Position numbers and translations under genes: made by a program. The notes under the pieces are model-generated. The model had not been told where the DNA came from, did not search any database, and saw only the letters and a list, made by a program, of their open reading frames with translations. A DNA stretch of 63,985 nucleotides, counting the filler, from Globobulimina sp. (taxonomy: Eukaryota): assembly GCA_003354225.1 (NCBI GenBank). It is 45 parts of 45 records of this genome, joined end to end, with 100 filler letters (N's around TTAATTAATTAA, not from the genome) between each part and the next. Parts side by side here need not be neighbours in the genome. Positions count along the whole stretch, not along the records: positions 15,676 to 17,000 come from PIVH01018626.1; 44 more parts are not named here. The stretch is one strand, 5' to 3'. Of the stretch, positions 437-36,170 are shown in pieces; positions within the stretch are counted from its first letter, which is position 1; every line of letters starts with the position of its first letter.

Positions 437-1325
437 ATGATATTATCACTAAACGATGAGCAGAGGGACATGACCTCGACACATTTGAGCCAATCCAAAC
501 ATGCATATACAGCCAGCAAATATAAAATAGCAAATAACGCATTGACGAAATCAATATTGAGAATCCAGAAAGCATTGACAATTGGTGTTCGAACTGGTGT
601 GACTCAAACAGTGGACTCAGCCACCTACATAGTTCTGGGATCTTTCATGGTCATTGCTTCCAATGTTGTGATGACTCGTCGCACCATCGCTGACATTGCG
701 GCTGAACCAACACTCAAAAGCGTAGCCACAGCACCTTTGAGAATTCCTCTTTGGGCGTGTATGATTTTGGTGGGAGGTGCATTGGGCGGCGCATATGTCA
801 TCGCAGCGGTGCCCATTCAGACTGTTGGCACTGCCGGTTTTTACATATATGATGGAAGGCAGACAGACGATGTCATGGATTGGCGTGGTTGGACCAGTAT
901 GTTGCCGACATTTCGAGGAGTGATAGATTGGATAACTGAGGAATACGTTGCGCAAAAAGCAGTGGTACTGTTCAAAAAAGAGCACTCTTTGAAGGAAAGG
1001 AAAGAGGAATCCAATAGAATTTTGACTAAATATCCGAATCGAATACCTGTTGAGTAATATCAATATGTGGCAGTTGTTGTGGATTATTTGTGAGCCGCAG
1101 CCACGTGCTTATATTCCAGGGGAAAACATAAAAAAAAAATATTTGGTGCCAGCAGATCTAAGTGTTGGCCAATTTGTTTATGTGATTCGGAAACGATTAC
1201 AGGTGGCACCGGAAGAAGCCATATTTTGTTTTGTAAACAATACATTGCCTTCGACCGCAAAGGTGATGTCTGAAATATATGCAGAGTATAAGGACGAAGA
1301 CGGATTTTTATACACTTCATATTGA
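437..1325 (+). CDS. ATG8: ATG8/GABARAP-family ubiquitin-like domain with a long hydrophobic N-terminal extension; short intron from 1048
   Basis: [26 protein letters not shown], then IICE...[23 protein letters not shown]...[11 protein letters not shown]...YKDEDGFLY. The start codon is uncertain. Confidence 0.85.
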
Positions 1326-1425
1326 NNNNNNNNNNNNNNNNNNNNNNNNNNNNNNNNNNNNNNNNNNNNTTAATTAATTAANNNNNNNNNNNNNNNNNNN
1401 NNNNNNNNNNNNNNNNNNNNNNNNN
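1326..1425. other. Artificial contig linker N44-TTAATTAATTAA-N44 (first of 44, recurring every ~1424 bp)
   Basis: Identical 100-nt spacer with stops in all six frames; flanking contigs are 1325, then 1324, then 1323 bp (length-sorted). Confidence 0.99.
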
Positions 1426-1822
1426 GACAAATGTCCAGCAAATATCTTATTATTGTTTCTATCTGACAGTATATCGTTGCCATACGACGGTGTATTGTTT
1501 CTATTTGTCCATATTATATTTGCAAATTAATGGTATTTTCAGTACGCATATTATTATTCTATGTACAATTTCGTTTTTCGTGATACAAAAACAGAGTTCC
1601 CAATTTAAGGTTTGCGGGATGACTCCGAAATTTTATGTCATATGTTATTTGTTTGGTCTGTCTTTTTATTTGTTTTCAGATTGCTTGGATAACCACACCC
1701 AGCCCCTTTGTATACATTTCATGCAATTAGAATTTGCAAACTCTCAGTTTGAATTAAGAAAATATTGATAAATATATACACAGTATAACAACAATATAAT
1801 TTATACAGATGAACAAGCCAAT

Positions 1823-2750
1823 TTATGCTTCGTTTCTGTTACCCACAGGAGGATAAATATGAGCTACATCATAATCAACTCGCACTACGGTCCCATTTTT
1901 AGTGAAAAACGTTACCCACTGTTCTATTTGATTCCGATTGGTTGTAATTGCTTTCAATCCAATTTCATTCTCAAATTCTAATTGATATGGTGATGTAATG
2001 CCTGAATCAACAATGTTAAGTATTTGTAATGTACTGGGTATGTTTACAAGTCTTGTTACATATTTGCAGCCTTCCATAGCAAAGTACTTTGCCATTGTAA
2101 GAGTAGAATTACATGCAATGAAATCGATAACTCCTTGAATTGGATTATTAGAAACATCCACCACCTCCAAAGCGATCGACATACCAAATGTTTCATCATC
2201 TAACCGTGTAAACTTATTATCGGCAATCGACAAACATTCAATACTACCAAATAAAAACTTTTGTAACGAATATAAATTATTACCGTTTAATTCAACCTCA
2301 GAGAATGCTGGAAAGTCAGGCCCAGGAATTTTAAGTGCATGGTCAGCAAATTCCAAATATTGTAACACGTCTTGGTTTAAATACCATTTATTGTTTAACG
2401 TTAAAACCACACCGAGATCCCACTGACATTCTATTATTTCTCTAATCAGTGAAGGAATGATGTTGGAACAGGTTGTTTTGATTTGCCTTTTGAAATTCTG
2501 ATCAAAATGTAATCTTTTTGCGGTGCGTGCAATTGTACCATTTTGTTTTTCTTCTCTCATGAATGCAGTTATTAATCGTGCGTAATCCTGTGAGCGTAAT
2601 GTAGTATTTCCAGTTCCTAAATCTCTTTGTTTCATTTCAGACTCTGCCGCTTTCCTAAAACGAATGTTTCCATGATGTAAATATATGTTTACTAATTCAT
2701 CGGATGGTAACCATTGATAGATGTGACTCAATAAATCATCTGTTACTTGC
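1823..2750 (-). CDS. F-box-like plus leucine-rich-repeat protein, 5' truncated
   Basis: N-terminal TDDLLSHIYQWLPSDELV (F-box-like); LRR motifs VELNGNNL, LSIADNKF, VDVSNNPI. Confidence 0.6.
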
Positions 2751-2850
2751 NNNNNNNNNNNNNNNNNNNNNNNNNNNNNNNNNNNNNNNNNNNNTTAATT
2801 AATTAANNNNNNNNNNNNNNNNNNNNNNNNNNNNNNNNNNNNNNNNNNNN

Positions 2851-3993
2851 CAATGTACTAACCATTAGTAAAAAGAAACCAGCATAAATTAGTGGAATAC
2901 CGGGATCTGATTTAATTTGGAGTCCCGTTGAACTAATTATATCTGTTAATGTAATTGGAAAGTTCGAATTAAACGTTTCATTTAATTCAAGATTACCTAA
3001 AAAGGTTCCTGTATCATTATAAATTGACGCATAACCTTCTAAGTTATCAACTAATACAGTAACACCTGTTTTCAATTCCGAATCAAATGGAATCCAAGTC
3101 AACCAAACTTTACTTCTGTTATTTAAGACACTAACTAATGGATATTGAAATGGGGTTTCATCATTTGTTTGAGCACGTAAACCAATTAAATTCCAATCAG
3201 TTTGATAATAATCAACTCCTTCGTATTTAATAGGAGAATTCACAAAAATTGTTTTTCGCTTAATTTCACTTCCGTCAACATTTAAAATTGAAATATCTGA
3301 ATAAAATTGAGAAACTGTCGTTTGTTTTGTATATGTAATCCAAAAATCATTAACACGTGCAGATACATTTGGTATTTTTGTTAATTGCCCATTACTTAAT
3401 ACATTTTGAATATGAAATGTTTCAGTCTTTGGAACAATTTCTTGTGCCTTAAATCCATTTAATGAACCAAAGACAGCTCCTAACAAAATAAGAATCATAC
3501 TAAAGTGAACAATAATTGGCGCAATTCGCCCAATTAAACCTTTATAACAATACGCAATGTCTTTTTGTTGAAAAATTGAATACTGACTTTCTTTGATTCG
3601 AAAGAGTAATTTAGTCAGTGATAAATGCTGTAATTTAGTTGAAATATTTAATAAACGAAATTGATTTGTTAAACGAAAAAATTGACAGCGTTTCGCGATT
3701 TTTAAAGATGGAAGTTGTTGTAAAAACGTGCAAGTTAATAAACTAATCCCAAACAATAAAATGAAGGTTATAAACCACCACGTGGTGTAAACATGATCAA
3801 ACCCAAATTTTAATATAATATCCCACGATAAAAACCCAAAAACTCGATTTGTCAAAGGGTAATTTAATTTATATGTTTCAATAGATTGGTCTTGTTCAAT
3901 AACTGTCCCAATAATACTAGCGGATGCGATAATCAGAAGGATTGTAATTGCAAAACGTAAATCTGCAATAATTTTAAAAATACTTTGTCTCAT
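2851..3993 (-). CDS. ccs1: Plastid cytochrome c biogenesis protein Ccs1 (ycf44), diatom/red-lineage type, 3' truncated
   Basis: ADLRFAITILLIIASASIIGTVIEQ, DHVYTTWWF, KGLIGRIAPIIVHFSMILILLG, QFYSDISI, YQTDW, STGLQIKSDPG; no introns. Confidence 0.95.
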
Positions 3994-4001
3994 TGATAAT
4001 T

Positions 4002-4175
4002 TTAATTAGTCGTATTAGTTTTTGAAGATGCTAAACGAATCCGTCCGGATGAAGCCCAATTTTGAAGTTTAAGAGTTTGATTATTTTCTAATTGAGCTAA
4101 AGGAATTAATTCATTTAAAGCTAAACAGATATCGTCAGTGGTAAATTCACGTTCTTCATCAAATGCATGATACAT
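4002..4175 (-). CDS. ycf46: Plastid Ycf46 (AAA ATPase), 3' end
   Basis: MYHAFDEEREFTTDDICLALNELIPLAQ...LQNWASSGRIRLAS; stop lies 8 bp before the ccs1 start. Confidence 0.88.
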   Translation of the reverse strand: MYHAFDEEREFTTDDICLALNELIPLAQLENNQTLKLQNWASSGRIRLASSKTNTTN

Positions 4176-4762
4176 NNNNNNNNNNNNNNNNNNNNNNNNN
4201 NNNNNNNNNNNNNNNNNNNTTAATTAATTAANNNNNNNNNNNNNNNNNNNNNNNNNNNNNNNNNNNNNNNNNNNNTTATCGTAACAAAGTACTATTCACC
4301 GACAGTGAATGACGTAATTAAAAGATATATTAAAATTGCCGTATCTACAAATCGACGTGCGTTTGATGATTGGGAATTGGACCCAAATCTTCTTTAATAA
4401 GATGCTCTTCTTGAGCTATCATCAGTATTTGGATACGAATAAATCAGAAATTTATTGAAAATTCCATGGATCTACATTACATAATATTGATGAAGACAAT
4501 GTCTTAAAAATGGGCGATTGTAATACATTGATTTACTTTTCCAACTCAGAACCCATTGTTTAAATGTTTTTTAAATGTTTTGATCTTTACTTAAAAACTT
4601 CTTCCACTTCCTAATCACTTCCTAATTAACTAAAAACCACAGAGAACATTACAGGAGTATTCTTAATTGTATTTTGTGATGCGGCTCAAATAATGTTTCG
4701 CTAGATCCATCATTAAAAGTTTTTTAGCTTGAAGTTGATTTTTAATTTAAAAAACAGTAATA

Positions 4763-5519
4763 ATGAATTCACCACTAACAACTCCAATAGTTACCCCAAT
4801 GATTACCCCAATGATTACCCCAGAAGTAGCCCCAGTGTCACCAAGCGATAAACAGGAAAAAGCCCTATTACCTATCCATATCGATATCGGTGCACACACA
4901 AATGCAACAAAAGATAAAACAGATCTAGACCTAAAAGTAATGACGCCGCAAATATCAGCCATTGAGCGATGGTCCTACGACGAAGGCGCCGATGTAGAAA
5001 CATTAGACGCATCCGATGGCCGTACATATACATTTCGAAAACAAAACCAAACAGCACGAAAAATATACTTTTCAATGAAAATAAAACGTTTCAGTGATAT
5101 TGATAATGTACGCGAATCATTCCGAGTACGCTTTCATTTATATCTAAATTGGATCATTACACAAAAAGAATATGAAAACTATATAAAATTTAAAAAAGCG
5201 GCAGCAAAAAATAAAAAACGTATGAAATGGGAACCAAAGTTCAAACCAAGGATAGAATTTGTTAATAACGTATGACTATGACATAGTTTATAATTTGATG
5301 TCTAATAATTTTATAATTGTATAGGTGGAAGAACATCATTTCGAAGCAGTGGATTACCCACCGGATGGCGCGTATCGTGTGCAAGTTTTTACAAATTGGA
5401 TGGACGCGGCCGAGTGTGGCTTTGCTTGCCGTGAGACCTTATTTTGTCGACAAAAATTAGAATGTGACTACACTTTCAGTGAACAAATGGAATTACGAAG
5501 TTTCCCTTTTGATTGCCAG
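4763..5519 (+). CDS. Pentameric ligand-gated ion channel (Cys/Pro-loop) ligand-binding domain, partial; intron 5270-5324
   Basis: IKRFSDIDNVRESFRVRFHLYLNW, PRIEFVN, MELRSFPFDCQ; the GT..AG intron joins the frames; next donor GTAAGT at 5520. Confidence 0.75.
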
Positions 5520-5700
5520 GTAAGTTGACGTACACTTTTTTTACAGAACTAATTCAGCGAAAAGCACACACGAAATGTATTTGTTTGTTGAGGACTTTAC
5601 NNNNNNNNNNNNNNNNNNNNNNNNNNNNNNNNNNNNNNNNNNNNTTAATTAATTAANNNNNNNNNNNNNNNNNNNNNNNNNNNNNNNNNNNNNNNNNNNN

Positions 5701-5864
5701 CATATTATATATTCGGAGGAGGCATTGCACCGTAGGAGGGAGAGACGGTGGGTGCATCATATTATATATTCGGAGGAGGCATTGCACCGTAGGAGGGAGA
5801 GACGGTGATGCTTTTTATTATATATTGGGTTGGAAAGCGAGCATTGCACCGTACGCAAGGGATT
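5701..5864 (+). repeat. Left tandem array of a 57-bp hairpin-containing unit (two copies plus one degenerate)
   Basis: Unit CATATTATATATTCGGAGGAGGCATTGCACCGTAGGAGGGAGAGACGGTGGGTGCAT; runs off the contig edge. Confidence 0.95.
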
Positions 5865-5923
5865 CAAACAAAGCATTTGCTGTTTTTTTATATTTATTAT
5901 TTTTAATTTAAACAATTTAAATA

Positions 5924-6652
5924 TCACTCAACAATAAGGTCATCCTCATTTTCGTCATCAAGCGGCAATAATATTTGTTGCTGTTCTTTTCTTTTATTTT
6001 TCTTCTTTAGACCTCTCAAATTTGCAGAATTTTCTACAAACCTGAGTGGAAATGGAGAGTTATTAAACTGTTTTTTTATTTCCATTGATGTTCTTGTTAC
6101 TAACTCACCAGTTTTTAATGATTGTTGTATATCTTGTTTCATTAGTTTGCTTAAAATCTCAACGAATATGTTACACTTTCCAATATCTCCTTCATCATCC
6201 AATTTGCTTAAAGGCAGATTCACAATTCCGTGATTCCGATCACTTTGTTTATAATTTGTTTTACGTATAAGACGTTTACAAAAAGCAACATCATATCTTG
6301 ATTGTATTTGTATATTATGGACACGAATCATGCGGTTATTAAAGCCTGCCAATGGTCTTTTTCTACATCTTGTTGTCCAACGATTTTTTCTCTGTTTATT
6401 CATAACATATCCTGTTCTTTGTTTTAACTCTCTTCTCCGTTGTTCCCATTGTTTTATTCGCATTTGTTTTGATTTCAGCTTATTAATCCTTACGGTATAA
6501 TTGTCACCTTTTGACCATATTCCAAATGTTATTTGTCCACTCGCAGTTTCAACACTCGGAGAAACGTTTTCTTCATTTTCATCATCAGAAAGTTGTAGAG
6601 CGTTTCTTCTCGGTTTACCGTATCGTCCACTAGTTGGCCATGGTGTTGACAT
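5924..6652 (-). CDS. Hypothetical basic protein (~242 aa), intronless
   Basis: Complete ORF, K/R-rich with acidic patches near both ends; no family recognised. Confidence 0.6.
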   Translation of the reverse strand: MSTPWPTSGRYGKPRRNALQLSDDENEENVSPSVETASGQITFGIWSKGDNYTVRINKLKSKQMRIKQWEQRRRELKQRTGYVMNKQRKNRWTTRCRKRPLAGFNNRMIRVHNIQIQSRYDVAFCKRLIRKTNYKQSDRNHGIVNLPLSKLDDEGDIGKCNIFVEILSKLMKQDIQQSLKTGELVTRTSMEIKKQFNNSPFPLRFVENSANLRGLKKKNKRKEQQQILLPLDDENEDDLIVE

Positions 6653-6877
6653 CAAAGAATGATATGTTGTTTCCAGAGCAATGAAAACATTAAATACAAA
6701 AACTCACTCCGAGGTGACCTCAGCATAAACGCACAAACTAATCACAAGAACATGAAAATATTTGTATTTAATATAAAACATAAGCACACGCACAATAAAA
6801 TCACTTGTCAATCCACCTTATAATTGGTGCAATTCATCGCTTGTTTGGTATAATTGGTGCAATTGTGTACCGTACAA

Positions 6878-7025
6878 TGCATCACCGTCTCCCCCTCCTA
6901 CGGTGCAATGCCTTCCTCCGAATATAGAATAAAAAGCATCACCGTCTCTCCCTCCTACGGTGCAATGCCTCCTCCGAATATATAATATGATGCACCCACC
7001 GTCTCTCCCTCCTACGGTGCAATGC
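6878..7025 (-). repeat. Right array of the same 57-bp unit in inverted orientation
   Basis: The reverse complement of 6928-7025 is identical to 5722-5819; runs off the contig edge. Confidence 0.95.
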
Positions 7026-7125
7026 NNNNNNNNNNNNNNNNNNNNNNNNNNNNNNNNNNNNNNNNNNNNTTAATTAATTAANNNNNNNNNNNNNNNNNNN
7101 NNNNNNNNNNNNNNNNNNNNNNNNN

Positions 7126-7978
7126 TCGAAGGAAAAATCAAAAAAATCAGTTAAATCGCCAACATCTTTGTAAGTACGGATAGTTTCTTCAATATCACCA
7201 TCTTCCAAAGTTATTACGTCGCCCATTCCATTAAAGACATAATTTCCTAAAATAATTTGTGGGAAAATATAGTTTAAAAATGAACCTGGCGCAGATTCTA
7301 AATACAAATTCGAAGTGGATGGGAATAATGCGGTGATTTTTGAATCGTCTTCTTTATAAATTAACGAATGACGATGATATCCATCGAAATCTTTTATACC
7401 TCGCTCGACCGCATGACATATTTCTAGTAACTCTTCAGTTAATATATTATTTGTGTTTTTTGAATAAAAAAATACATTTAAATATATTGACGCGATCGCT
7501 CGATAATAAAAGTCTGAATTTGACCATAATGTATAGCCATAATATTGTTCGAGCCGCCTTCTTCTTATTCTTCTTCTTCCACTGCCTTCGCCATACTCCA
7601 ATGAGCTACACATTGTTTTAGCGAATTTGCGTATAAATTAACAAAAAATATAAATGTACTGTACCTAAATTTTGTGTCTTCTGCTAATGATTTTTGATAA
7701 AAATTGTTTGAAATATCACTATTAATTACCTTAAAATCACTGAAATTAAATGATAAACAAACAGGAAACAATGTGACATAAACTGCACATCCAACCATTA
7801 CAGCAATGATTGTCCAAAAACAACCACAACATCCTGCCGGAGATGCAACGCATGTGGCTATTCCCAGTGCTTTTAATTCTATTGAATGAACATCGCAGTC
7901 TTCTTCTTCTTCTTCTGCTTCTGCTTCAGGTGGATGATGGAACCCAATGGGATCAGAGTTGTTATCAATTCCAATCAT
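7126..7978 (-). CDS. Dispatched/Patched-like membrane protein, N-terminal part; intron 7606-7664
   Basis: First TM helix, RRRRL, then NVFFYSKNTNNILTEELLEICHAVERGI resembling the first luminal loop of Dispatched-like proteins; in-frame GT..AG intron. Confidence 0.55.
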
Positions 7979-15675: not shown

Positions 15676-15870
15676 CTTCTCTGGGGTGTGTTCTGTCTGC
15701 TCTTTTGTGTGTGTCGTCTAACCTAAACTCTAAAAATAATTTTTTTCTGATTGATTGACTCGAACATATGTGTGATCACTTTATGACGCTCAGAACACAC
15801 ACCACACAAAAGAGAAGACAGAACACACACAAAAGAGCAGACAGAACACACCCCAGAGAAGAGCAGACAG
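15676..15870. mobile_element. Short non-autonomous terminal-inverted-repeat element inside DNMT2
   Basis: 15676-15714 is the exact reverse complement of 15823-15861 (39 bp); arms are built from ~23-28 bp CTGTCTGCTCTT...GTGTGTT subunits. Confidence 0.75.
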
Positions 15871-16188
15871 AGCTTTTGATCTTTCATCGTTTGAACCTTT
15901 TTGAATTCCCGCTCGACTGTAAGGTTGACACGGCGGTGACATTGTAATTATAAAAGGTTTCATCAGATCGAAATGTTTGGCAGTTAAATGCTCAATGTTT
16001 GAATTGTTTGGTTTAATGCTAAAATTGTGGTGGTATAATTTGTTTGCGTTGCAATTATTATCAAACGGAAAAATTTGCAATGTATAGTTTTTGAATGACT
16101 TTGATGATTCAACCAATGATTTGAGTGCTAAATGAAATCCACCGATGCCACTGAATAATTCAACCACTGTCATTATTTTGTGGGTCAT
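15869..16188 (-). CDS. DNMT2: DNMT2/TRDMT1 tRNA cytosine-5 methyltransferase, first exon
   Basis: VVELFSGIGGFH (motif I), ANKLYHHNF, NIEHLT, MSPPCQPYSRAG (motif IV), DERSKAL. Confidence 0.88.
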
Positions 16189-16278
16189 TCACTACCTTGA
16201 AAGGATAAAAAAACTCAAACTTTCAAAACTTTAACTCCTCTTTTTTGCTCTCATTCTCTTGCATTTTGAAAATCCAAA

Positions 16279-16947
16279 TTGCTCCAATATATACTGCATA
16301 GTAATACAAACCATACAGTGTTAATGGAAGGACTTTGGAACATGGTATCATGTGTAATGATGTCATTACCAACCAAAGCATTTGAACCAGGTGCTGTGGA
16401 ATGTAATCATAACAATATATTCCAACGCATTAATTCACATTTTAATCGCACGTCATTTCGTAATGTGATGTTAGAAACGTGTAAGGATTTTAACAATGGA
16501 TATTTCTTTCTAATTTTCCAATTAGTATTATTAGTGTATTGCCCATCCGTCGCTTTGTCAATTATTTATCAATCGTATGACTTAGAAGTGCAACAGCAAC
16601 AACCTCAAGATATTGATGAAGAACAATTAGATATATTCCAACAATGTCCATCCAGACAACCTTATATGAAACAATATGAAATTGAACAAAAACAGATTCA
16701 AATGCAAACACCTACGCCATCTTCGATACAGTTCCAATTAACACAATTATTAGAGCGATTAATGCAGAAACAACAATTATTTGAGCAACAATCTCGAGCA
16801 GCAGTTATGATTAAATCCGCACAAACAAGCAATGAGAATGGAGGTACAGTAAAAGTCAAAGTAACATTACAAATATCGGTACCATCACAAGAACGCCAGG
16901 TTAGTGGTAAAATGCTGATTTGGCAAAAGTTTATTATTACATTTTAA
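16279..16947 (+). CDS. Hypothetical Q-rich protein, divergent from DNMT2; exon limits uncertain
   Basis: Long ORF with a Q-rich C-terminal half. Confidence 0.4.
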   Translation: MLQYILHSNTNHTVLMEGLWNMVSCVMMSLPTKAFEPGAVECNHNNIFQRINSHFNRTSFRNVMLETCKDFNNGYFFLIFQLVLLVYCPSVALSIIYQSYDLEVQQQQPQDIDEEQLDIFQQCPSRQPYMKQYEIEQKQIQMQTPTPSSIQFQLTQLLERLMQKQQLFEQQSRAAVMIKSAQTSNENGGTVKVKVTLQISVPSQERQVSGKMLIWQKFIITF

Positions 16948-35166: not shown

Positions 35167-35170
35167 TAAT

Positions 35171-35243
35171 GGGGAACTAGCTCAATCGGAAGAGCGCAAC
35201 GTTCGCAACGTTGAGGCACCGGGATCGAAACCCGAGTTCTCCA
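35171..35243 (+). tRNA. tRNA-Ala(CGC)
   Basis: 73-nt cloverleaf; acceptor GGGGAAC/GTTCTCC with G3:U70; anticodon arm CAACG-TTCGCAA-CGTTG; eukaryotic Ala-type ATCGA T-loop; oligo-T terminator downstream. Confidence 0.93.
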
Positions 35244-36170
35244 TTGTTTTTGTTTTTTTTTATACTTTTGAATGCATGATTGAATGACTACTAAATTTAA
35301 CAGATTAGGTCACTCACTCCACTAAGTCAATAGCTCACTCACTCACTTTTGGATTTTGGAACATTACTCATTTGGCTGGGTTTAGAGTTTAGACCCAAAC
35401 TCCAGCCATCAATAATACCATATCACTATAAAGTATAACAAATAAATGTATAAATAGAAACAGAAATAGATACTTAATTGAGTGATGTTACGATCATTTG
35501 ATGATCGCATTTGGNNNNNNNNNNNNNNNNNNNNNNNNNNNNNNNNNNNNNNNNNNNNTTAATTAATTAANNNNNNNNNNNNNNNNNNNNNNNNNNNNNN
35601 NNNNNNNNNNNNNNCATTGCAATGAATTGTATGAAATTAAAATAGAATTAATTGAAAACTATGGATTTGCAAATTGTTTAATATTAAAAAGACTGTAAAT
35701 TTAGCCATCGACATTTTAATTGTAATGCTAAAGCAAATAAAGAAAATAATGTAAATGAGCTCGAAATGAAAATAATAATAATAATAATGATAACGATGAT
35801 TATATCGATTGTTTTGGTCGATTTGAAACTGAAAAAAATAAAAATATAATTGGTCCATTTGAAACTGAAAAAAATAATAATAAATATAATATAAATATTT
35901 TACAAAATACACAAAATGAGAAAGATAAAGATGAGACAACATTTATTGAGAAAATATTTTATTGAGAACATTTATTGAGAATAAGGAATGAAATGAAAGA
36001 AACCGATGTCAACAACAATATGATTCTGATGCACTTAAACAAGATATTTATGATATGAATGAGTCGAATATTTATTTACATACAAACAAAGTAATCAAGT
36101 CATATGAATTGTGTTTTTTGTGGCGAAATTATTTTTATTCTGATGGAATGTTTAACATTTGGATACATCT

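Follow-up and report, generated by a model that had tools for sequence, protein, structure and literature searches.

A non-coding repeat of the foldback type inserted, not long ago, into an exon of the DNMT2 gene of Globobulimina sp. (assembly GCA_003354225.1, here G000), where the spliceosome probably removes it with splice sites chosen at the locus rather than fixed at the ends of the element. The insertion is recent, as two runs that diverge from this sequence by 2-3% read straight through the site. The repeat is one of about 30 or more copies that make up a young family. The intron gain in DNMT2 appears to be imprecise, and the predicted product is a slightly shorter enzyme. How new introns originate and are tolerated is a long-standing question. 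Few gains have been caught with a filled site, an empty site and a transcript, and the DNMT2 locus offers all three in outline.

A foldback-type repeat interrupts the first coding exon of DNMT2

The window, which is the whole 63,985-nt stretch of DNA that we analyzed, consists of short contigs strung together with N spacers. The contig at 15676-17000 (G000:C18626, locus L001) bears the element, with the insertion at one contig end. On its minus strand, an ORF runs from an ATG at 16188 to an Ala codon ending at 15871. This 106-aa stretch (15871-16188) is the original part of the first coding exon of DNMT2, the tRNA C38 methyltransferase, and contains motifs I-IV. The ORF matches PF00145 (E 9e-17, Pfam), C5-methyltransferase motifs are present, and its five best PDB matches are DNMT2 proteins. 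The initial annotation had placed the end of DNMT2 homology at R-S-K-A, where the element starts, with a GT at 15868-15867, and Pfam, PDB and the sequence agree with it on both points.

The closest named homologue is a Bolivina argentea protein (P0001; 70% identical in the N-terminal part and 74% in the C-terminal part), and we therefore regard the host as foraminifer-like. Homologue searches returned no near-identical DNMT2 protein. The C-terminal part sits on a separate contig (L033), and we infer that it belongs to the same DNMT2 gene as the contig at 15676-17000. The middle of the protein (about 90 residues, including the ENV-type motif) was found in G000 neither by a protein search with P0001 residues 113-207 nor by a 24-nt pattern; the assembly is fragmented, and this absence shows nothing. 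Because the middle was not found there, the far junction of the insertion, with the terminal CAG foreseen in the initial annotation, cannot be read in G000. Three C5-methyltransferase fragments (L030, L031 and L032) resemble restriction-modification enzymes, not DNMT2. A plus-strand ORF at 16324-16947, about 207 codons long and in part Gln-rich, lies head-to-head with DNMT2, about 135 nt away, and is covered far more deeply than DNMT2 in runs X5, X6 and X7.

All parts of the insertion are described on the minus strand. The left half of the target, AAAAGCT, occupies 15871-15877, as placed by the window sequence and by the loose ends of X6 and X7 at 15871. The uninterrupted site reads AAAGCTTT. 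At the insertion point the element-free runs read GCT-TTG, and for this reason the CTG in the window is assigned to the element. GCT or AGCT fits both the target and an arm module, a microhomology. The near arm (15791-15870) is built of tandem modules of about 21-26 nt, with a TCTGTCTGCTCTT block and GT-rich spacers. It is followed by a unique core common to the family (15715-15790), the central 70 nt of which are 96-99% identical in the 20 other copies cut out, of 25 tried. The far arm (15676-15714) is a perfect 39-nt inversion of 15823-15861 that is cut by the contig end, which bears out the earlier report of an identical inverted pair. The same report called this structure a TIR; the arm is indeed inverted, but it is a tandem array of modules rather than a simple TIR. 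Folded as RNA, the element reaches -94.2 kcal/mol (z -10), and 0/200 shuffles were equally stable. Rfam returned below-threshold miRNA hairpin matches and one sRNA match, which we rejected as generic.

The repeat belongs to a young multi-copy family

The element had been proposed to be a multi-copy repeat, and the searches of G000 confirm this. A pattern for the core gave 34 matches, compared to 0 for a control pattern, and an arm motif gave 157 compared to 9. The element as query gave 114 BLAST pieces. Family members are about 170-330 bp long and without an outer domain, and the number of arm modules varies between copies. The first 30 nt of 51 ends contain on average 5.3 GT and 4.7 CT, compared to 1.4 GT and 1.2 AG for the window, so that GT and CT are about fourfold denser in the arms than in the background. 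In run X1, summed depth over the core is 240-413 compared to about 5, which fits tens of copies and is not itself a copy number. One further complete copy (L101) comes from an independent metagenome record; it is at a different locus, with a left end and flank that resemble those of L003. Viral contigs gave 0 element matches.

Among 15 other contigs with the arm motif that were examined, nine have single isolated matches and six have arm pieces. Two loci that seemed to hold other interiors (L096 and L099) proved to be half-copies cut within the core, with no long ORF facing the arm. Just upstream of the half-copy at L099 (G000:C17564, about 373-617) is a separate, nearly perfect long inverted repeat. 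L021, L022, L023, L027 and L029 form a subfamily with a tandemly duplicated core and a linker of about 20-45 nt. At L043 (G000:C7594, 2107-2293), at least seven 26-nt arm modules run to the contig end in a minisatellite-like expansion.

Sequencing runs contain an empty site and a join consistent with splicing

Four of 10 listed runs (X1, X5, X6 and X7) were examined, all as contigs, which cannot show strand, ends or RNA level. Cover in X1 is flat (3-12) over the unique part. Cover in X5, X6 and X7 is alike uneven, with the neighboring gene high, DNMT2 low, and little or nothing between. In X5, there is no cover at 16216-16260 and 648-7350 per bin on the neighboring gene. No listed run is recorded as RNA; X6 and X7 are guessed to be RNA, and X5 is called RNA-like from this cover profile only.

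Compared with the window, X6 has 7/317 and X7 has 10/294 different DNMT2 letters. From 15871 both run straight into L-H-H-F-C-H-Q-I-L-P with no element letters. The 30 old-exon letters that encode these residues contain zero AG, and there is no GT at the join. We read both as element-free sites, since precise splicing at this point would require a donor that starts with CT.

X5 is nearly identical in genotype to the window and gives a different join. Its record 10 (1068 nt, depth 62.7) runs unbroken from 16180 to 15852, with 1 other letter in 329. Past 15852, the contig reads x-H-L-P-N-Y-I-M-L-E, which is DNMT2 coding sequence that matches P0001 and P0007. The join is in frame and leads into the codons just before the ENV-type motif, as the initial annotation had anticipated. 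The window letters after the break are GTGTGT, and the join probably reflects a splice from GT 15851, at a 5' splice site GG/GTGTGT (15846-15851) inside the arm. The X5 junction falls exactly here. This counts as modest evidence, because GT is common in the arm (17 in its first 90 nt), and the splicing case at DNMT2 is that of one contig of one RNA-like run. The contig keeps 19 nt of the arm (15852-15870), which would be exonized as six codons and one further base; about 12 codons of the old exon are skipped, for a net 6 residues fewer. In this form, the segment has 7 residues, compared to 13 in 5/6 homologues and 12 in the remaining one. Introner-like removal with the frame kept thus appears to hold, with GT 15851 as the probable donor in place of the GT first proposed (GTCTGC, 15867-15868), which is unused in the junction seen.

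These data suggest the following route. A non-coding foldback-type repeat landed in the DNMT2 exon, and the spliceosome would leave from the internal donor GT 15851, keeping 19 nt of arm. Read inward, the arms are GT-rich and their complement is AG-rich, which would supply several donors and acceptors in either orientation. The acceptor could be an old-exon AG some 36 nt beyond the site of insertion, or an AG of the arm beside a target deletion like the probable one at L053, and we consider these two about equally likely. An old-exon acceptor is consistent with the absence of AG from the 30 old-exon letters seen.

Other exonic copies differ in how they could be removed

Exonic copies occur in DNMT2, in an insulysin gene (L048), in a sulfotransferase-like gene (L053) and in an unnamed gene (L017). 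At L048, L017 and L053, a complete copy sits between collinear halves of one gene. The L048 element parts open frames of 749 and 180 codons; residue 114 of 120 in exon 1 aligns to IDE 806, and residue 2 of exon 2 to IDE 814. Removal as AAAG/GT...AAG/GTTT would be length-neutral against solved IDE chains. At L017, removal as AATG/GC...CAG/ATTT would give F-A-F-P-N-D-F-N-T, with the spacing of P0014, P0015 and P0036, and the resulting Asp would match two of these three homologues. No L017 paralogue was found in G000. Since the arms are dense in GT and CT, an in-frame option is by itself weak evidence, and the length-neutral fits at L048 and L017 are stronger evidence than that.

No length-neutral splice solution exists at L053. 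This gene lacks 4 codons relative to a 60%-identical homologue, and arm-like letters code for aligned residues on both sides, which points to a target deletion with microhomology. The paralogues of L053 are too distant to fix the junction. Pfam named no ORF beside L002, L003, L012, L017, L021, L050, L051 or L052. At L051 (G000:C4631), the copy has a repeated exon stretch of about 22 nt on either side, the two occurrences being some 65 nt apart, and in-frame GC-AG and GT-AG options are available by hand count. At L049 (G000:C46), an X5 contig joins arm to flank, and part of that copy may stay in the RNA.

Copies have variable ends and no TSD signal

Ends were compared for 51 boundaries from 40 loci, of which 15/51 were adjusted by hand; the counts exclude L047, where the core is decayed and no clear arms are present. 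The 51 ends have 23 different terminal 4-mers. According to the initial annotation, one CTGT...ACAG terminus would supply both donor and acceptor. Ends beginning CTGT number 0/51 by the automatic rule and 1/51 after hand adjustment, and the X5 contig leaves the element at 15851; these data do not support the proposal. In a low-depth assembly such as this one, amplification chimeras may inflate the variety of ends.

The 11 complete copies gave no TSD signal, with a mean of 2.8 nt for own pairs and 2.8 nt for cross pairs (P = 0.56). The longest loose flanking repeat among them is 5 nt. The two ends of one copy mirror each other (at least 7 nt in common) in 6/11 copies compared to 9/110 cross pairs (permutation P = 0.004), a result that hand-adjusted boundaries may favor. 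AAA lies within 7 nt outside 29/51 ends, compared to a background of 17%. In an extended set, AAA is found at 31/58 ends, preceded by C or G in 26/31 and separated from the end by 0-3 nt. Ends that start alike share three or more outside letters in 37% of cases compared to 9%.

Counting family members in exons, as had been suggested, does place copies there, with 24/48 ends (flank of at least 300 nt) touching 80 or more open codons. This is below the 61% obtained for random places, and the family is therefore not exon-enriched.

No coding interior was found among the fetched arm-bearing contigs; of the 157 arm matches, 100 were listed. G000 has 87 matches to PF00589 (tyrosine recombinase), unusually many for a eukaryotic assembly, and some may be bacterial. 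Of these, 25 loci were fetched, and 0/25 have BLAST similarity to the element. Among the loci fetched, no autonomous partner was found and no mobilizing gene could be linked to the element. With less assurance than for splicing, we suggest that microhomology-guided integration accounts for the heterogeneous ends of near-identical copies, the lack of a TSD, the microhomology and the weak S-AAA preference better than DDE cut-and-paste does. Joining would then take place at S-AAA-N(0-3), by host break repair or by a tyrosine recombinase.

Alternative explanations for the join and for mobility

Long inverted repeats are prone to deletion, and the X5 join could mark a genomic deletion allele that has lost part of the hairpin and some exon, in which case the allele with the full insertion may just be a broken gene. 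Such an allele would yield an identical transcript, X5 is RNA-like by profile only, and half-copies cut within the core do exist (L096 and L099). We nevertheless consider a deletion unlikely, as the break falls exactly at a GT in a donor-like GTGTGT context, the frame is kept, and L048 and L017 have splice-compatible, length-neutral ends inside long open frames. Removal from a fixed CTGT...ACAG terminus, with donor 15868 and a terminal CAG acceptor, can point to the GT present there, to the mirroring of ends described above, and to a hand count in which mirroring of the far end and duplication of GCT would give an in-frame join that adds two codons. It is the most improbable of these readings, given that the X5 contig passes 15868 unbroken to exit at 15851 and that the ends are so varied; the 15868 donor could persist at most in a minor isoform lost from the contigs. 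Template switching typically leaves microhomology junctions, and artefacts might account for the data if the hairpin was skipped during reverse transcription in X5 and the variable ends came from chimeras of whole-genome amplification. The hairpin is very stable and the assembly is fragmented and of low depth (48,370 contigs; X1 about 5x), both of which would favor such events. A hairpin skip, however, should leave mirrored far-arm letters and the start of the old exon, neither of which is in the 30 letters seen past the X5 break, and the join has no evident long direct repeat. The complete copies between collinear gene halves and the independent metagenome copy also argue against an artefact, which we regard as very improbable.

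For mobility, one alternative is that the family is a standard DDE cut-and-paste foldback or MITE (Mutator-like or Spy-like) that lost its original ends by erosion once inserted. Its modular inverted arms and non-coding middle agree with foldbacks as described in the accessible part of one study (PMC4079207), and AAA beside ends recalls the AAA/TTT site in the portion available of the Spy study (PMC4122938), L035 being the closest case. Cores that are 96-99% identical leave little time for erosion, however. There is neither an 8-10-bp TSD nor a conserved motif at the termini, the gap between AAA and the end ranges over 0-3 nt, AAA is missing at 27/58 ends, and the empty site at DNMT2 is AAAGCTTT, not AAATTT. 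On balance, we regard an eroded DDE element as unlikely.

Relation to introners and foldback elements

The comparisons that follow draw on the openly accessible portions of the cited work. Some introners are described there as taking one splice site, or both, from the TSD or a neighboring exon (10.1101/2022.06.06.494994, Gozashti et al. 2022), and the same source has cases with codon gain or loss on record. Site-co-opting introners have been reviewed by Mikina et al. 2024 (PMC11282704), and the types listed in a further source are TIR, LTR, helitron and Crypton (PMC12130899). Like introners, the present family consists of multiple similar copies with inverted repeats that have inserted into the exons of unrelated genes, with candidate GT/GC-AG splice ends. 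Introners as so described have one boundary arrangement per family, whereas here ends and splice sites vary by copy. A donor seen 19 nt inside a tandem arm, the lack of a TSD signal and the lack of exon enrichment are further differences.

Each of the other systems compared shares some features with the family, as far as the available text of each paper describes them. Long inverted arms, variable tandem modules and a middle domain are shared with the foldback transposons FB and Tetris (PMC4079207). The outer flanking domain and the 8-10-bp TSDs of Tetris are both missing in the DNMT2 family, which appears to be spliced. Inverted repeats, no TSD and AAA next to many ends are shared with Spy (PMC4122938), but the precise AAA/TTT insertion, the GGANNNNG terminus and the TIRs without subrepeats given for Spy are all absent here. 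Identity with Spy was rejected, as no end begins GGA, the arms are tandem modules and the empty site is AAAGCTTT. Cryptons (PMC3212892) similarly have ill-defined ends, no true TSD and known non-autonomous derivatives; unlike the DNMT2 family, they are without TIRs and mostly have 4-6-bp direct repeats. Intron gain through capture of DNA at double-strand breaks (PMC3020277) also gives junction microhomology, with or without short direct repeats, but predicts unrelated filler DNA, whereas the DNMT2 element recurs at 30 or more sites.

The DNMT2 insertion therefore appears to be an introner-like intron gain from a foldback-type repeat. Because it has neither a fixed boundary nor a TSD, we keep the element outside the described families. 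A broader model, which we put forward tentatively and ourselves rather doubt, is an intron-making element without fixed ends. Its arms would be latent arrays of donors and acceptors from which splice sites are picked at each locus, and it would spread by TSD-free microhomology at S-AAA sites, possibly with the many tyrosine recombinases of this genome acting in trans. If this were true, splicing would occur in either orientation, sometimes perfectly and sometimes rewriting the protein, as in DNMT2. The family would then be the first introner-like one in Foraminifera within the literature searched, observed at a stage when it is still polymorphic, and a family of this kind may be overlooked by introner screens that rely on boundaries.

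The data also suggest that early gains can be imprecise and alter a conserved enzyme while sister insertions look seamless. What limits the surprise is the small size of the family, together with the fact that introns derived from transposons with co-opted splice sites are already known. In the supplements of two introner screens, as far as available, Reticulomyxa filosa, the one named foraminifer checked, scores 0, and a foraminiferal family would thus widen the known range of introners. The terms "rhizaria" and "foldback" are both missing from the accessible main text of these two screens, and the part available of a study on another rhizarian gives no introner signal (PMC13746701). A search that lay mostly outside subscription papers and supplements returned neither an introner described from Foraminifera nor a foldback family described as spliced. 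Elsewhere in the window, a tRNA-Ala(CGC) at 35170-35244 (plus strand) is preceded by four copies of a 12-nt repeat.
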